In this document: piece by piece, positions 2,741 to 5,501 of the stretch | Position numbering within the stretch: position 1 is the first letter of the stretch | Layout: each line of letters opens with the position of its first letter | Virus record (IMG/VR): IMGVR_UViG_2778261064_000016 | Reading direction: 5' to 3' (one strand) | DNA: 5,501 nt | Source: a virus | Taxonomy: Duplodnaviria; Heunggongvirae; Uroviricota; Caudoviricetes | Position numbers and translations under genes: made by a program | Notes under the pieces: generated by a model | Databases searched by the model: none | What the model saw: only the letters and a program-made list of their open reading frames with translations | What the model was told of the DNA's origin: nothing

Positions 2741-2770
2741 ATCATAAAACACACAAAACGTGTTAGTCAA
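2741..2770 (-). promoter_or_regulatory. PL-like sigma70 promoter for the leftward early operon
   Basis: On the minus strand: -35 TTGACT (2770..2765), 18-bp spacer, -10 TATGAT (2746..2741). Sits just downstream of the toxin-operon terminator and is overlapped by two operator-like palindromes. Confidence 0.4.
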
Positions 2771-2785
2771 CACAAGAAAAGTGTA
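2748..2785. promoter_or_regulatory. two adjacent 17-bp operator-like palindromes (OL-like): AACAC-N7-GTGTT and AACAC-N7-GTGTA
   Basis: 2748-2764 AACACacaaaacGTGTT is a perfect 5-7-5 palindrome. 2769-2785 AACACaagaaaaGTGTA has one outer mismatch. Centres are 21 bp apart; the A-rich spacers and half-sites match the palindromes at 3754-3770 and 3802-3818. Confidence 0.4.
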
Positions 2786-2799
2786 TGCAGGGATAAAAA

Positions 2800-2827
2800 A
2801 ACTCCCATTCAAGAGGTGATGGGAGTT
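2800..2827 (-). terminator. intrinsic terminator of the repressor-antitoxin-toxin operon
   Basis: Stem AACTCCCAT (2827..2819) / ATGGGAGTT (2808..2800) with a 10-nt loop, followed on the minus strand by TTTTTTAT (2799..2792). Begins 10 bp after the toxin stop codon. Confidence 0.45.
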
Positions 2828-2836
2828 GGTTGATTA

Positions 2837-3124
2837 TTAATCGTTACCAGGATATTGCTGACGAGCATGTATCACGCTAACAATTTCAATGCTTGAAGTA
2901 GCTACCCTGTATAGGATTATGTAGTTAGGGTGAGTCACGATTTCTCTCAATCCAGAAACCCGTTCGCTTGGCGGATATAGATACGGATGCTCAGATAGGG
3001 GTAGCACCGATGTTTCAATGCGTATTTTTAGTCTGCGCGCTGCCGGAGGGTTTTTCTTAGCAATGTAAGTTATAATCTGACTTAAATCATCGCGAGCAGA
3101 CGGTAACCATAAAACGGGCAGCAT
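2837..3124 (-). CDS. parE: ParE/RelE-superfamily toxin (type II TA toxin), 95 aa
   Basis: ATG at 3124..3122 overlaps the antitoxin stop (TAATG), with SD GGGAG 6 nt upstream inside the antitoxin gene. Sequence MLPVLWLPSARDDLSQIITYIAKKNPPAARRL...GLREIVTHPNYIILYRV...IEIVSVIHARQQYP shows the ParE/RelE hallmark pattern. The track ORF 2837..3247 is a 5' over-extension. Symbol is family-level; this may be parE2 of the O157 paaR2-paaA2-parE2 system. Confidence 0.85.
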   Translation of the reverse strand: MLPVLWLPSARDDLSQIITYIAKKNPPAARRLKIRIETSVLPLSEHPYLYPPSERVSGLREIVTHPNYIILYRVATSSIEIVSVIHARQQYPGND

Positions 3125-3315
3125 TACACGCTCCCGTTTTCCATGGCAATTTGATTGATGATTTTTTCCATTTTTGCCATTACTTCGTCGTGCGGTATTG
3201 CTGGTCGTGGATCTGCAAGGCTTGCTGCAACCTTGGCGCGCAACCATTCGTTGTAACTGTTTTCTTGCTCGATAGTTTCAAATTCTGAAACTATCGGCGA
3301 AAGAACTGTGCTCAT
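3124..3315 (-). CDS. cognate antitoxin, 63 aa (PaaA2/ParD-like by position)
   Basis: ATG at 3315..3313 with SD AGAGG 6 nt upstream; stop TAA at 3126..3124 overlapping the toxin ATG (translational coupling). Small acidic protein MSTVLSPIVSEFETIEQENSYNEWLRAKVAASLADPRPAIPHDEVMAKMEKIINQIAMENGSV. The 63-aa length matches what I recall for PaaA2, but the sequence is not verified. Confidence 0.75.
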   Translation of the reverse strand: MSTVLSPIVSEFETIEQENSYNEWLRAKVAASLADPRPAIPHDEVMAKMEKIINQIAMENGSV

Positions 3316-3343
3316 AGTATGCCTCTCTGTCGTATGGTTGTAA

Positions 3344-3742
3344 TTATGCTCGACGTCCTTTTTGGGCGGCAAGCCATCTTGCAACTGTGCGATCCATTGA
3401 TTCTTTTTTGTCTTTCATGTCTTTAAGCATTTGTTCTTGCTCCTCTTCTGGGAACGCCCCAAATGTTTGAAGCAAATCTCTCTGGCGCGGTCCTATTTTC
3501 ATTGTGTCAGGTACTACAACCTGTTCATCCTCGCTCGGAGGAAGCATGAACCAAAAAATAGGCCGAGCAGTTATTTGTGAAAGTCGATCTAAATTGTCAG
3601 GATTTGGACTAACTAAGCCAGCAGCCCATCGCTGCACTGTTTGTTGCGACACACCAACTAATTTCCCAAGCTCCGCCTGACTCCAGCCTGTTTCAGACAA
3701 GAGTTTCTTTATTCTGTATGCAGTAATCTCGAGTGTTTTCAT
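3344..3742 (-). CDS. cI-like prophage repressor, HTH (XRE-type), 132 aa, RacR/PaaR2-like; no peptidase S24 domain
   Basis: ATG at 3742..3740, stop at 3346..3344. HTH motif in GWSQAELGKLVGVSQQTVQRWAAG. No SD, but a -10-like TAGAAT lies 7 nt upstream of the ATG, suggesting a leaderless mRNA. Divergent from the cro-like gene; 28 bp upstream of the antitoxin gene on the same strand. Too short for a LexA-type autocleavage domain. Confidence 0.85.
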   Translation of the reverse strand: MKTLEITAYRIKKLLSETGWSQAELGKLVGVSQQTVQRWAAGLVSPNPDNLDRLSQITARPIFWFMLPPSEDEQVVVPDTMKIGPRQRDLLQTFGAFPEEEQEQMLKDMKDKKESMDRTVARWLAAQKGRRA

Positions 3743-3753
3743 AGTAACAATTC

Positions 3754-3770
3754 TACTCAAAAAACGAGTA
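3754..3770. promoter_or_regulatory. 17-bp operator-like palindrome TACTC-N7-GAGTA in the divergent repressor/cro intergenic region
   Basis: TACTCaaaaaacGAGTA is a perfect 5-7-5 inverted repeat with an A-rich spacer. It abuts the -10-like element of the repressor promoter (attcta at 3750-3755 on plus = TAGAAT on minus). Confidence 0.4.
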
Positions 3771-3801
3771 ATGCGCGACACACTAAAAATGGGTTTACAT
3801 A

Positions 3802-3818
3802 TACACATTTTTTGTGTA
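3802..3818. promoter_or_regulatory. 17-bp operator-like palindrome TACAC-N7-GTGTA overlapping the putative rightward (PR-like) promoter
   Basis: TACACattttttGTGTA is a perfect 5-7-5 inverted repeat. It sits between a -35-like TTTACA (3794-3799) and a -10-like TAACCT (3817-3822), upstream of the ydaS-like gene SD GGAGG (3836-3840). Confidence 0.4.
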
Positions 3819-3848
3819 ACCTCCAGCCGCATGATGGAGGTACAAATA

Positions 3849-4121
3849 ATGAATGATCATGTTAAGAAAAGGGTCGCGGGAAAATTTTCACAACGAGAAC
3901 TGGCTATGTTAATGAGCACGAAACAACAAAGCGTATCTCGTTGGTTCAACTCTAAGTTCCCTGCATCAAGGGTGCTTCACTTGTGTCAATTGATGCAGTG
4001 GGAGGTTACTCCACACGAACTCCGACCAGACATTTACCCTAACCCAACCGACGGTTTACCCGTTGGGTGTAAGGCTAACACATCAAAGGCACCGGAGTTG
4101 ATTCATGAAAATCAAGCATGA
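3849..4121 (+). CDS. ydaS: Cro-like HTH DNA-binding protein (YdaS-like), 90 aa
   Basis: ATG at 3849 with strong SD GGAGG (3836-3840, 8-nt spacer); stop TGA at 4119-4121. HTH in FSQRELAMLMSTKQQSVSRWF. Divergent from the repressor. The track ORF start at 3771 is an unsupported extension. Symbol assigned by synteny with Rac racR-ydaS-ydaT. Confidence 0.8.
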   Translation: MNDHVKKRVAGKFSQRELAMLMSTKQQSVSRWFNSKFPASRVLHLCQLMQWEVTPHELRPDIYPNPTDGLPVGCKANTSKAPELIHENQA

Positions 4122-4530
4122 GCACATCCGCATGGCGATGAATGCCTGGGCGCGTCCGGACGGTGAAAAAGTTCCGGCAGCTGAAATAACCCGGGCTTAT
4201 TTTGAGCTGGGTATGACGTTCCCGGAGCTATATGACGACAGGCATCCGGAAGCGCTGGCTCGTAATACCCAGAAAATTTTCCGCTGGCTGGATAAAGACA
4301 CCCCTGATGCGGTTAAAAAAATTCAGGCGTTGTTACCAGCTATCGAAAAAGCAATGCCGCCTCTGCTGGTGGCCAGAATGCGCAGCCACAGTTCAGCTTA
4401 TTTTCGGGAGCTGGTGGAGATGCGGGAGCGACTGGTGAGAGACGCTGATGATTTTGTCGCAGTGGCAATCGCCGGTTTCAATCAGATGAACCGTGGTGGC
4501 CCGGCAGGAAATGCTGTGGCAGTACATTGA
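4105..4530 (+). CDS. ydaT: YdaT-like protein (CII-like regulator/toxic protein of Rac-type prophages), 141 aa
   Basis: ATG at 4105 with SD GGAG (4094-4097, 7-nt spacer); overlaps the upstream stop by 17 bp (coupled). N-terminus MKIKHEHI matches my recollection of E. coli YdaT. Stop TGA at 4528-4530. Confidence 0.8.
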   Translation: MKIKHEHIRMAMNAWARPDGEKVPAAEITRAYFELGMTFPELYDDRHPEALARNTQKIFRWLDKDTPDAVKKIQALLPAIEKAMPPLLVARMRSHSSAYFRELVEMRERLVRDADDFVAVAIAGFNQMNRGGPAGNAVAVH

Positions 4531-4601: not shown

Positions 4602-5501
4602 ATGGCTAACGCCTGGCTCAGATTATGGCATGACATGCCAAATGATCCTAAGTGGCGAACAATTTCCAGGGTGTCAGGACAGCCAATCGCAACAGTGATG
4701 GCAGTGTATATCCACCTTCTGGTGAGCGCGTCACGAAATGTCACGACATGTCACGGCGTGTCACTACGTGGCCACATTGATGTCACGACGGAAGATTTAG
4801 CAAGTGCGCTTGATGTGACGGAAGAAGTAATTGATTCAATTTTACAGGCAATGCAGGGGCGGGTACTTGATGGAGATTTAATCACTGGATGGGAAAAACG
4901 CCAGGTACTGAAAGAGGACAACGGTAACGTTTCTCAAACCGCGAAATCCCCGGCAGAGCGCAAGAGAGCGCAGCGCGAGAGGGAAAAATTACGAAAACAG
5001 AATGAGGGGGGCCACGACGAGTCACGCATATGTCACGACATGTCACGACGAGTCACGACAGATAAAGATACAGATAAAGAATTAAACCCCACACATAACG
5101 CGCGCGAGAGTGCTCCGACCAGTGAGGCGAATGGTGTGCCGTTGCAGACAGCGGAACCTGATTACCAGGAAGGCCTGAGCGAACCCATCGGGAAATTTCC
5201 GATGACCGATGGCTGGCATCCGTCGCCGGATTTTCGACGACGGGCTGCGTTGTGGGGGATGGCTCTGCCAGAGCCGGAATTTACACCTGCTGAACTTGCC
5301 GCCTTTCGGGACTACTGGGCAGCGGAGGGGAAAGTTTTCTCGCAGGTTCAGTGGGAGCAGAAATTCGCCCGTCACGTAAATCACGTCAGGGCACAGGTTA
5401 AACCAGTCAGCAAGGGGGTAAACCATGCAGCAGCACCAGGTGGCACCGCATCACGGGCAGTTCAGGAAATTCGGGCAGCACGTGAGCAGTGGGAACGTGA
5501 A
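4602..5501 (+). CDS. phage replication initiation protein (O-like, YdaU/DUF1376-type N-terminus, DnaT-like C-terminal region), partial: continues beyond the right edge
   Basis: ATG at 4602 with SD AAGAGGTGA (5-nt spacer). Hand translation gives 300 codons with no stop to 5501. N-terminus MANAWLRLWHDMPNDPKWRTISRVSGQPIATVMAVYIHLLV. Iteron clusters inside the gene, as in lambda O. Follows ydaS/ydaT as in Rac. Confidence 0.8.
   Translation, partial: MANAWLRLWHDMPNDPKWRTISRVSGQPIATVMAVYIHLLVSASRNVTTCHGVSLRGHIDVTTEDLASALDVTEEVIDSILQAMQGRVLDGDLITGWEKRQVLKEDNGNVSQTAKSPAERKRAQREREKLRKQNEGGHDESRICHDMSRRVTTDKDTDKELNPTHNARESAPTSEANGVPLQTAEPDYQEGLSEPIGKFPMTDGWHPSPDFRRRAALWGMALPEPEFTPAELAAFRDYWAAEGKVFSQVQWEQKFARHVNHVRAQVKPVSKGVNHAAAPGGTASRAVQEIRAAREQWERE
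4729..4790 (+). repeat. iteron cluster 1: five copies of TGTCACGAC-like 10-bp repeats (four contiguous at exact 10-bp spacing)
   Basis: cgTCACGAAa / TGTCACGACa / TGTCACGGCg / TGTCACTACg at 4729-4768, then TGTCACGACg at 4781-4790. A DnaA-box-like TATCCAC sits at 4708-4714. Confidence 0.7.
5011..5060 (+). repeat. iteron cluster 2: five copies of (T/A)GTCACGAC at exact 10-bp spacing
   Basis: gCCACGACGa / GTCACGCATa / TGTCACGACa / TGTCACGACg / aGTCACGACa read directly. Two further degenerate copies (GTCACGtaaaTCACGtc) at 5371-5387. Confidence 0.7.
5061..5090 (+). other. AT-rich tract with short direct repeat (GATAAAGA x2) immediately after iteron cluster 2; candidate DNA-unwinding element of the origin
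   Basis: gataaagatacagataaagaattaaacccc is about 70 percent A+T, directly flanking the iterons, mirroring the lambda ori layout (iterons then AT-rich region inside the initiator gene). Confidence 0.5.

Follow-up and report, generated by a model that had tools for sequence, protein, structure and literature searches.

Candidate operator palindromes at the early promoters of a lambdoid Escherichia coli prophage immunity region

The window, meaning the whole 5,501-nucleotide stretch of viral DNA analyzed here (IMG/VR record IMGVR_UViG_2778261064_000016), comes from a lambdoid E. coli prophage, of which it forms the immunity region (Table 1). Genes for a repressor, a PaaA-like protein, and a ParE-like protein run leftward as a three-gene operon on the minus strand, with parE and paaA overlapping by 1 nt and a gap of 28 nt between paaA and the repressor gene, and genes for a YdaS/Cro-like and a YdaT/CII-like protein run rightward. 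The C-terminal 55 amino acids of the repressor are 53% identical (E = 4e-18) to PaaR2 of CP-933P, a cryptic prophage of E. coli O157:H7 (Jurenas et al. 2021, PMC8630535; Prolic-Kalinsek et al. 2023, PMC9986795), and its N-terminal domain gave no alignment with PaaR2. We also found weak sequence matches between the repressor and the P22 C2 and 434 repressors (for 434, E = 0.016 to 0.07), and no Pfam match to the RecA-cleavable Peptidase_S24 domain in its 132 amino acids. For the YdaS-like protein, sequence searches returned no PDB relative at E < 0.01 and no BLAST match to CP-933P YdaS, and its recognition helix was located by alignment with the repressor and the 434 proteins. The YdaT operator OM at the ydaS/ydaT junction has been footprinted in CP-933P (PMC9986795). 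This immunity type is found in 12 of 5,426 complete E. coli genomes, compared to 593 for the 5' end of paaR2. No sequenced phage in the phage collection carries this repressor at more than 60% identity, and a scan of genome contigs with the repressor C-terminal domain found 2 loci only. In strain RM9088, the element lies at ompW and carries subtilase-toxin (subAB) genes.

Table 1. Genes, predicted transcription signals, and candidate operators in the window
Feature	Coordinates	Strand	Details
PL-like promoter	2741-2770	-	-35 TTGACT (2770-2765), 18-nt spacer, -10 TATGAT (2746-2741); consensus scan, 10/12 matches
OL1 (candidate operator)	2748-2764	none	AACAC-ACAAAAC-GTGTT; fills PL spacer, between PL -35 and -10; exact motif match
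OL2 (candidate operator)	2769-2785	none	AACAC-AAGAAAA-GTGTA; overlaps first 2 nt of PL -35; motif match
Intrinsic terminator of repressor-paaA-parE operon	2793-2827	-	hairpin 2800-2827, T-run 2793-2799
ParE toxin gene	2837-3124	-	Pfam ParE_toxin, E = 2.2e-17
PaaA2-like antitoxin gene	3124-3315	-	Pfam PaaA2, E = 1.7e-22; PDB PaaA2 match
Immunity repressor (CI analogue), 132 aa	3344-3742	-	Pfam HTH_3, E = 5.8e-11; recognition helix SQQTVQRW
PRM-like promoter, repressor	3750-3778	-	-10 TAGAAT (3755-3750), weak -35 TCGCGC (3778-3773); predicted, read from sequence
OR3 (candidate operator)	3754-3770	none	TACTC-AAAAAAC-GAGTA; in PRM spacer, overlaps 2 nt of PRM -10
OR2 (candidate operator)	3779-3795	none	CACAC-TAAAAAT-GGGTT; degenerate; overlaps 2 nt of PR -35, abuts putative PRM -35
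PR-like promoter, ydaS-ydaT	3794-3822	+	-35 TTTACA (3794-3799), 17-nt spacer, weak -10 TAACCT (3817-3822); predicted by position
OR1 (candidate operator)	3802-3818	none	TACAC-ATTTTTT-GTGTA; in PR spacer, overlaps 2 nt of PR -10
YdaS-like Cro analogue, 90 aa	3849-4121	+	Pfam YdaS_toxin, E = 2.2e-10; recognition helix KQQSVSRW
YdaT operator OM	4098-4115	none	TTGATTCATGAAAATCAA; ydaS/ydaT junction; exact TTGATT-N6-AATCAA
YdaT (CII analogue)	4105-4530	+	84% identity to CP-933P YdaT; PDB 8bt1 and 3c4r match

The PL-like promoter is directed towards a DUF1391 gene. Three other immunity types carry a TTGAC-type -35 element at the PL position (TTGACA in 933M/L001 and in L002, TTGACT in CP-933P), and the L004/L026 type has TTTACA there. 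Neither PR nor PRM was reported by the consensus promoter scan; the PR -10 and the PRM -35 are poor consensus matches, and both were placed by position only, with the position of PR assigned against L002 (TTGATA-17-TATAAA), L001 (TTGATT-18-TAGGCT), and L015 (-10 TATACT). The PRM -10 lies 7 nt before the repressor ATG at 3742, with no Shine-Dalgarno sequence, and this distance is 7 nt in L015 (-10 TAAAAT) and 6 nt in L001, suggesting that the repressor mRNA from PRM may be leaderless; in CP-933P, the paaR2 mRNA was shown to be leaderless (PMC8630535). The RNA of the predicted terminator folds at -12.7 kcal/mol (z = -3.85) and is followed by U7, and a hairpin with a T-run occupies the terminator position in other immunity types too. 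An Rfam search of the window returned no RNA family.

The original prediction, made from the letters of this DNA, had described four related 17-bp inverted repeats as candidate binding sites at the two early promoters. We found all four (OL1, OL2, OR3, and OR1) where they had been placed, one in the PL spacer, another on the PL -35, and the remaining two between the divergent repressor and cro-like genes, and the pattern matched nowhere else in the window. They had been given as inverted repeats with 5-bp arms around a 7-bp center, and this needs amendment for OL2, which is perfect over the inner 4 bp only and has A/A as its outermost pair. The count of four also proved too low, since a fifth site, OR2, had been missed between the two right-hand sites; it has one mismatch to the core ACAC-N7-GTGT and two to the pattern proposed originally. 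The proposed OL/OR-like organization was supported, with a tripartite OR and five sites in all. The five 17-bp sites have the consensus (T/A)ACAC, 7 A/T-rich bp, GTGT(A/T), with A or T at 5 to 7 of the 7 central positions and with the ACTC variant in both half-sites of OR3. OL1 and OL2 are direct repeats of 81% identity. We found no second repeat family in OR or OL and no third OL site; the region directly upstream of OL2 is taken up by the operon terminator.

The shared half-site, and not symmetry, distinguishes these sites from chance. WACWC-N7-GWGTW has 4 matches in the whole window compared to 0.07 expected, a number reached in 0 of 200 shuffles, and for the stricter core ACAC-N7-GTGT, we counted 3 exact matches in the window compared to 0.08 expected. 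Related copies at promoters are, as claimed, very unlikely to be coincidence. The accompanying figure of about 0.2 arbitrary palindromes expected by chance in this much intergenic DNA needs correction: we calculate about 0.37 for both intergenic regions together (380 bp; 380 x 4^-5), and perfect 5-7-5 palindromes of any sequence are not rare, numbering 9 in the window compared to 5.2 expected. We therefore rejected palindromy as such as the signal. The motif is also not common in the host: 50 kb of RM9088, including the whole prophage, contained four of the operators plus one match in a coding region, and 50 kb of unrelated chromosome contained one match, a background of approximately 0.5 to 1 match per 50 kb, which extrapolates to roughly 50 copies per chromosome by chance.

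Inverted repeats could also be read as RNA hairpins that act as attenuators or processing sites. When the OR3 and OR1 palindromes were folded, however, they gave weak structures (-4.0 and -5.7 kcal/mol, respectively), and all five sites lie upstream of the adjacent predicted transcription starts, so that we regard this account as vanishingly unlikely.

Comparison of six loci with the same repressor (the W type, to which the window belongs) showed that variation is concentrated outside the half-sites. Only 3 of 50 half-site columns vary, compared to 12 of 35 columns in the central 7-bp spacers (Fisher p = 0.001), and 32 of the 125 remaining intergenic columns vary. In L010 and TUM1881, OL1 reads AACAC-ATTTTAT-GTGTT on the PL strand, which fixes the N7 register. 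The OL2 spacer is AAGAAAA, AAAAAAA, or ATTTTAT among relatives, with the ACAC/GTGT arms kept, and the ACTC/GAGT half-sites of OR3 are kept in all six loci. OR2, for its part, is kept in all same-repressor relatives as CACAC-N7-G(A/G)GTT with a variable center, and it has positional equivalents in other types. We also scanned, blind, the diverged relative L015, whose repressor is 73% identical with an unchanged recognition helix and whose operon is without the toxin-antitoxin genes. The motif was found at three OR sites, with TACTC-AAATTAA-TTGTA at the OR3 position, and at two sites located approximately 1 kb downstream, beside and within a TTGACA promoter, the same arrangement of three plus two sites. 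The retention of half-sites while centers drift, and the presence of the motif at the OR and OL of L015 itself, support the reading of these sites as operators.

These comparisons also bear on the possibility that the sites resemble one another because the promoter segments at PL and PR share an ancestor, or by chance, with no selection for protein binding. The two promoters do have parallel layouts (site, -35, site, -10), OL1 and OL2 are similar direct repeats, and generic 5-7-5 palindromes are frequent here. Against this, the shared motif is enriched at least 50-fold, half-sites are kept as centers and flanks drift, dyad symmetry is retained in diverged loci, and a change of DNA-binding domain is accompanied by a change of motif at OR and OL alike, all of which makes descent or coincidence a very unlikely explanation.

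The switching of motifs was seen in a comparison of five immunity types built on a common scaffold, each with a palindrome of its own at OR and OL, and the motif-by-locus cross-scan was nearly diagonal. The L002 type has OR3 sites that resemble those of the W type, so these two types may show some cross-talk. In a sixth type, from Klebsiella and Pectobacterium, which was compared at OR only, the palindromes again are distinct. Where the DNA-binding domain differs, the palindromes at equivalent promoter positions thus differ too, which supports the operator reading. Within each of the five types compared, the recognition helices of the repressor and the Cro-like protein have a common motif: SQQTVQRW and KQQSVSRW, respectively, in the W type, TQQTVQQW and AQQTVWQW in 933M, AQQSVQKW and PQQVVSRW in L002, TQGAVSHY and TQGMVSHV in L004, and SYLSQLMSGR and SYLSQMASGR in 933P. 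Two loci with the helix TQQSVQRW (L105 and L106) were left out, as the DNA upstream of the guessed start was coding-like and did not yield an OR. Co-variation limited to OR would be weak evidence, because the adjacent repressor gene, OR, and cro could be inherited as one block; the argument is carried by co-variation at OL, which lies approximately 1 kb away across conserved toxin-antitoxin genes.

Binding by a nucleoid-associated or DNA-bending protein of the host (IHF, Fis, or H-NS), A-tract curvature, or UP elements could also account for A/T-rich centers at promoters such as those found here. Such an explanation predicts the same motif in all types of one host, whereas each type has its own, and it is the ACAC/GTGT arms that are conserved and not the A/T tract, which leaves a host factor highly improbable.

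We also considered a one-residue recognition code, in which the residue equivalent to 434 Q33 sets base 4 of the half-site and Arg gives C. It is contradicted by two types that bear Lys at this position, one with ACAA half-sites and the other with ACAC/TAAC. The link that does hold is between QQ and the outer ACA only.

The closest characterized system is the PaaR2/YdaS/YdaT switch of CP-933P. Both loci have the order PL, parE, paaA, repressor, PRM/PR, ydaS, ydaT, and a replication gene, both have toxin-antitoxin proteins of the PaaA2 and ParE families, and they are alike in the repressor C-terminal domain, YdaT, the exact OM site at the ydaS/ydaT junction, operators at both OR and OL, a layout at the repressor start that in the window would predict a leaderless mRNA, and a conserved leader downstream of PL. 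In CP-933P, the OR and OL operators are bound by PaaR2 and YdaS, as determined by EMSA, footprinting, and reporter fusions; PL933P is active and is repressed; low levels of PaaR2 activate PRM; and PaaR2 forms octamers (PMC8630535). In contrast to these likenesses, neither the repressor nor YdaS has a DNA-binding domain related in sequence to its CP-933P counterpart, the window has three OR and two OL sites compared to the four inverted repeats, OR1-3 and OL1-3, reported for CP-933P, and the operators differ, with (T/A)ACAC-N7-GTGT(A/T) in the window and TTTAGT-type repeats (consensus GTTTAGTAA) in CP-933P. We found TTTAGT hexamers once in the OR and not in the OL of the window, compared to four in the OR and two in the OL of CP-933P, and the lone copy in the window is an isolated reverse-complement match overlapping OR2, with no TTTAGT-type array. 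We therefore rejected the possibility that the window has the operators of CP-933P. As its repressor N-terminal domain, YdaS, and operators do not match those of CP-933P, the locus is heteroimmune to that prophage, and because the N-terminal domains of the repressor and YdaS are not homologous, the CP-933P precedent transfers by architecture and not by sequence.

That precedent also bears on whether both regulators use the palindromes. One regulator alone might do so, for example the repressor, with YdaS acting elsewhere, or YdaS alone at OR3 and the repressor alone at the ACAC sites. The ACTC half-site of OR3 is distinct and conserved, and CP-933P has two overlapping kinds of repeat, to neither of which its authors assign PaaR2 or YdaS by exact sequence (PMC8630535). 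However, the helix motif is common to the repressor and the Cro-like protein in all five types, OR and OL are without a second repeat family in the window, and in CP-933P, the footprints of PaaR2 and YdaS on OR overlap and each protein represses PL (PMC8630535). On balance, we consider use by a single regulator unlikely, and binding by both proteins is the reading we prefer.

The locus also has parallels in phages 434 and lambda. As in 434 (whose repressor sequence we verified against the PDB before alignment), the repressor has an HTH_3 fold with a recognition helix that begins with Q-Q, aligned to 434 Q28-Q29, the repressor and Cro-like protein have a helix motif in common, and the operators begin with ACA and have conserved outer bases and a variable center. 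In 434, contacts are made to the outer 5 + 5 bp, and the center is subject to indirect readout (PMC1636474). The 434 operator, in contrast, is 14 bp (ACAA-N6-TTGT), with A at position 4, and the core in the window spans 15 bp (ACAC-N7-GTGT) of a 17-bp site, with C at that position; in addition, the sequence similarity to the window repressor is marginal, that repressor has a PaaR2-type C-terminal domain in place of the S24 peptidase domain, and the window OL has two sites instead of three. With lambda CI and Cro, the window has in common pseudo-palindromic operators of 17 bp, an OR of three sites between divergent PRM and PR (site centers 23 and 25 bp apart), an OR2 beside a weak PRM -35, another set of operators at PL, and a repressor mRNA that is leaderless in lambda and predicted to be so here. 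Its proteins and operator sequence are unrelated to those of lambda, only two OL sites are present instead of OL1-3, the repressor is without a RecA-cleavable domain, and toxin-antitoxin genes stand where lambda has rexAB. OL and OR are approximately 1 kb apart, compared to approximately 2.4 kb in lambda.

Taken together, the 17-bp palindromes very probably serve as operators in a bistable immunity switch of the lambda type; they are of an ordinary operator kind, with a recognition sequence that has no earlier description. For the identity of the bound protein, the order of occupancy, the activation of PRM, and looping, we infer the following scheme. Repressor dimers would recognize the outer 5 bp of each half-site by means of the 434-like helix-turn-helix (SQQTVQRW), with no base-by-base reading of the central 7 bp. 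Repressor on OR1, OR2, OL1, and OL2 would turn off PL and also PR, and with it ydaS-ydaT and the replication genes; at OR2, it may stimulate the weak, putatively leaderless PRM, and at OR3, it would turn PRM off. The Cro-like YdaS protein (KQQSVSRW) would bind the same sites in a different order of preference, with OR3 predicted to be first because that site has two ACTC halves, compared to one ACAC and one non-ACAC half in OR2 and two ACAC halves in OR1, OL1, and OL2. The PaaR2-like C-terminal domain probably serves in oligomerization and possibly in looping between OL and OR over approximately 1 kb.

A further-reaching interpretation is that a series of domain swaps among PaaR repressors, combined with a graded operator code in the half-sites that would be simple to read, makes this an orthogonal, previously undescribed bistable switch, which we put forward tentatively, as a possibility that falls somewhat short of an even chance. 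One conserved C-terminal, oligomerization domain would then be joined to at least six DNA-binding specificities, each mirrored in the Cro-like helix and OR and, in the five types examined there, also in OL. The graded code would lie in the pairing of half-sites, ACAC/ACAC at OR1, OL1, and OL2, ACAC with AC(C/T)C at OR2, and ACTC/ACTC at OR3, which would set the order of occupancy.

The operators of the window leave the general understanding of such switches unchanged, and a new heteroimmune type is of modest interest. They do provide an operator sequence and promoter layout for an uncharacterized lambdoid immunity type, and they extend the CP-933P switch to a heteroimmune family whose operators can be read from sequence. 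This may be of use for choosing mutations in reporter and footprinting work and possibly as a source of orthogonal repressor/operator pairs, and also for predicting immunity to superinfection and cross-regulation among prophages that share a host.

All four 17-mers of the original prediction are present in the sequence where it placed them, and we found that WACWC-N7-GWGTW matches the window at these places and nowhere else in its 5,501 bases, with 4 matches compared to 0.07 expected and none of 200 shuffles giving four. Since this consensus was devised after the sites had been seen, we also tested the plain core ACAC-N7-GTGT, which has 3 exact matches in the window compared to 0.08 expected. 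Allowing one mismatch adds only 3780-3794, which falls between the two sites on the right; the predicted family of four is thus real but incomplete, as a fifth site (OR2) had been overlooked. The rarity of 5-7-5 palindromes, used as an argument in the prediction, does not hold, since the window contains 9 perfect ones of arbitrary sequence compared to 5.2 expected. The signal therefore lies in the common half-site and the clustering. OL2 is an inverted repeat in its inner four base pairs but not in the outermost pair, and single matches to the motif occur elsewhere at a background of about 1 per 50 kb, so that it is the cluster that is restricted to the prophage.

Candidate operators, predicted promoters, genes, and other features of the window
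Feature	Position	Strand	Sequence or remark	Basis
PL leader	2563-2740	minus	PL to DUF1391, ~180 nt	
PL	-35 2770-2765; -10 2746-2741	minus	TTGACT, 18-nt spacer, TATGAT	consensus scan
OL1	2748-2764		AACAC-ACAAAAC-GTGTT; fills PL spacer	
OL2	2769-2785		AACAC-AAGAAAA-GTGTA; overlaps first two bases of PL -35	
Terminator	2793-2827	minus	hairpin 2800-2827, then U7; -12.7 kcal/mol	
ParE toxin	2837-3124	minus		Pfam
PaaA2-family antitoxin	3124-3315	minus		Pfam
HTH_3 regulator (repressor)	3344-3742	minus	132 aa	Pfam
PRM (predicted)	-10 3755-3750	minus	TAGAAT; poor -35 TCGCGC	position
OR3	3754-3770		TACTC-AAAAAAC-GAGTA; fills PRM spacer	
OR2	3779-3795		degenerate; ends in first two bases of PR -35; abuts PRM -35	
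PR (predicted)	-35 3794-3799; -10 3817-3822	plus	TTTACA, 17-nt spacer, weak TAACCT	position vs relatives
OR1	3802-3818		TACAC-ATTTTTT-GTGTA; fills 17-nt PR spacer, 2 bases into -10	
Inverted repeat	3819-3842		CCTCCA-N9-TGGAGG; -12.3 kcal/mol, z = -3.6	
YdaS-family HTH protein	3849-4121	plus		Pfam
YdaT site	4098-4115		TTGATTCATGAAAATCAA	
YdaT-family protein	4105-4530	plus		Pfam
Replication protein, DnaT domain		plus		Pfam
10-bp tandem repeats	4728-4790; 5020-5069		(A/G)TGTCACGAC	
Duplicated sequence	5058-5080		ACAGATAAAGA	

The left pair lies on the -35 and spacer of PL, a good sigma-70 match, as predicted, and a strong intrinsic terminator closes the repressor-paaA-parE operon immediately upstream of OL2 and PL. 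The promoter consensus scan of the window reported neither PR nor PRM, and both were assigned by position. By alignment, the right-hand layout matches that of relatives, in which the PR -10 position holds TATAAA, TAGGCT, TAATCT, or TATACT. Seven bases separate the PRM -10 from the repressor ATG and no Shine-Dalgarno sequence is present, the same arrangement as in the proven leaderless paaR2 of the Escherichia coli O157:H7 prophage CP-933P, and the position of OR2 against the PRM -35 is like that of lambda OR2. Center-to-center distances are 23 bp (OR1-OR2), 25 bp (OR2-OR3), and 21 bp (OL1-OL2). By these assignments, all five sites are outside the transcripts of the adjacent promoters, and the two that were folded form weak structures (OR3, -4.0 kcal/mol; OR1, -5.7 kcal/mol), which makes it extremely improbable that the palindromes are RNA hairpins.

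Two further features were also seen. In the inverted repeat before ydaS, an anti-Shine-Dalgarno sequence is paired with the ydaS ribosome-binding site; loci that share the window's repressor retain this repeat, one of them (L010) with a U-G change, and because its left arm extends over the predicted PR -10, it may be outside the PR transcript. The PL leader, which had no Rfam family match, starts with CAACCCACCCCGCCCCACAG (PL strand), a block that hardly varies among the six immunity regions compared despite their differing operators, and might act as a regulatory 5' UTR, as in the dicBF operon.

We compared the window with five further loci that encode its repressor (RM9088, TUM1881, and three IMG/VR contigs), and all five contain the five sites. 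Across these six sequences, 3 of 50 half-site columns are variable, compared to 12 of 35 central 7-bp columns (Fisher P = 0.001) and 32 of 125 other aligned intergenic columns, a count slightly inflated by one indel. OL1 of L010 and TUM1881 reads AACAC-ATTTTAT-GTGTT (PL strand), which fixes the N7 register. A diverged locus (L015) encodes a repressor with 73% identity and the same recognition helix, SQQTVQRW; its intervening gene is different and the toxin-antitoxin pair is absent. A blind motif scan of L015 found three sites in OR and two exact sites ~1 kb downstream at a TTGACA promoter, one within the spacer and the other 7 bp upstream of the -35.

Other immunity types have the same scaffold of the conserved C-terminal domain, toxin-antitoxin genes, YdaT, and PL leader. 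At the equivalent promoter positions, each type carries its own palindrome: ACAR-N7-YTGT in the O157 prophage type (L001/L005), TAAC-N7-GTG in the L002 and L003 type, ATAR-N5-BTAT in the L004 and L026 type, and TTTAGT repeats in the CP-933P type. At OR as well as OL, the motif-by-locus matrix of five types is close to diagonal, and a sixth type (Klebsiella, Pectobacterium), examined at OR, has its own sites there, e.g., TACAA-CCAAAGG-CTGTT. Since OL is ~1 kb from the repressor DNA-binding domain, across conserved genes, its co-variation points to selection for binding and would be hard to explain otherwise. Together, enrichment, conservation pattern, and co-variation contradict chance or promoter duplication as the source of site similarity, which we consider very improbable. 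Sites for a host factor or A-tracts are just as improbable, as the motifs are type specific within the same host and the arms, not the A/T tract, are conserved. The same three lines of evidence indicate that the predicted OL/OR-like organization, with candidate repressor/Cro operators, is right. In some L002-type loci (L017 to L021), OR3 is TACACTTTTTTTGTGTA, a perfect match to the window consensus, so partial cross-recognition between the L002 and window types is possible.

A recognition-helix motif is common to the repressor and the Cro-like protein in each of the types compared, consistent with a single set of operators serving both proteins, as it does in lambda, 434, and CP-933P; that only one of the two binds is unlikely. 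The N-terminal domain of the repressor can be aligned with the P22 C2 and 434 repressors, and Q-Q of SQQTVQRW is opposite Q28-Q29 of the verified 434 sequence. Operators of QQ-type relatives all begin with ACA, and the window sites have the pattern of 434, in which outer base pairs are conserved and a free center is read indirectly (PMC1636474), with the outer 5+5 bp conserved and the center free. From these features, we infer a mechanism in which repressor dimers would touch the five outermost base pairs of every half-site, and occupancy of OR1, OR2, OL1, and OL2 would close PR and PL. OR2 occupancy may help the weak PRM, OR3 occupancy would close it, and YdaS would use the same five sites with reversed preference. 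A conserved half-site gradient (two ACAC in OR1 and the OL sites, one in OR2, and two ACTC in OR3) is a plausible basis of differential affinity. An attempted reading of a one-residue recognition code for base 4 failed.

The gene architecture matches the paaR2-paaA2-parE2/ydaS-ydaT immunity region of CP-933P, in which the roles of CI, Cro, and CII are taken by PaaR2, YdaS, and YdaT. There, footprints of the intergenic region were obtained with PaaR2 as well as YdaS, each of which also represses a PL-like promoter; low PaaR2 activates PRM, and paaR2 mRNA is leaderless (PMC8630535). We retrieved the CP-933P sequence (L036) for direct comparison. The YdaT proteins are 84% identical, and the ydaS/ydaT junction contains, at the same position as in CP-933P, an exact copy of TTGATT-N6-AATCAA, its footprinted high-affinity YdaT operator (PMC9986795), implying by analogy that YdaT controls a PRE-like leftward promoter in the window too. 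In contrast, the repressor is alignable with PaaR2 only over its last 55 residues (53% identity), the YdaS proteins have no detectable similarity, and the CP-933P operators (consensus GTTTAGTAA) are unlike the window motif. These differences indicate that the window is related to the CP-933P switch but heteroimmune to it, a distinct element.

Of 5,426 complete E. coli genomes, 12 contain a prophage 99.6% identical to the window. The RM9088 copy (L035) is a lambdoid prophage integrated beside ompW, with integrase, exonuclease, dicB, lysis, terminase, capsid, and subtilase-toxin genes; beyond the window, its positions 37082-39009 hold the subtilase AB5 toxin subunits, three tRNA genes, and a second ParD/ParE pair. 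The O-like replication gene, which encodes the DnaT domain, contains two clusters of 10-bp repeats resembling the origin iterons within lambda gene O, followed by the duplicated sequence.

The element is of a textbook kind, and its closest system, CP-933P, is experimentally characterized. The window's operator specificity was not found in the literature searched, and the phage collection held no sequenced phage with a repressor >60% identical. The window would add a heteroimmune type to this familiar kind of switch, with one operator site beyond those of the original prediction.
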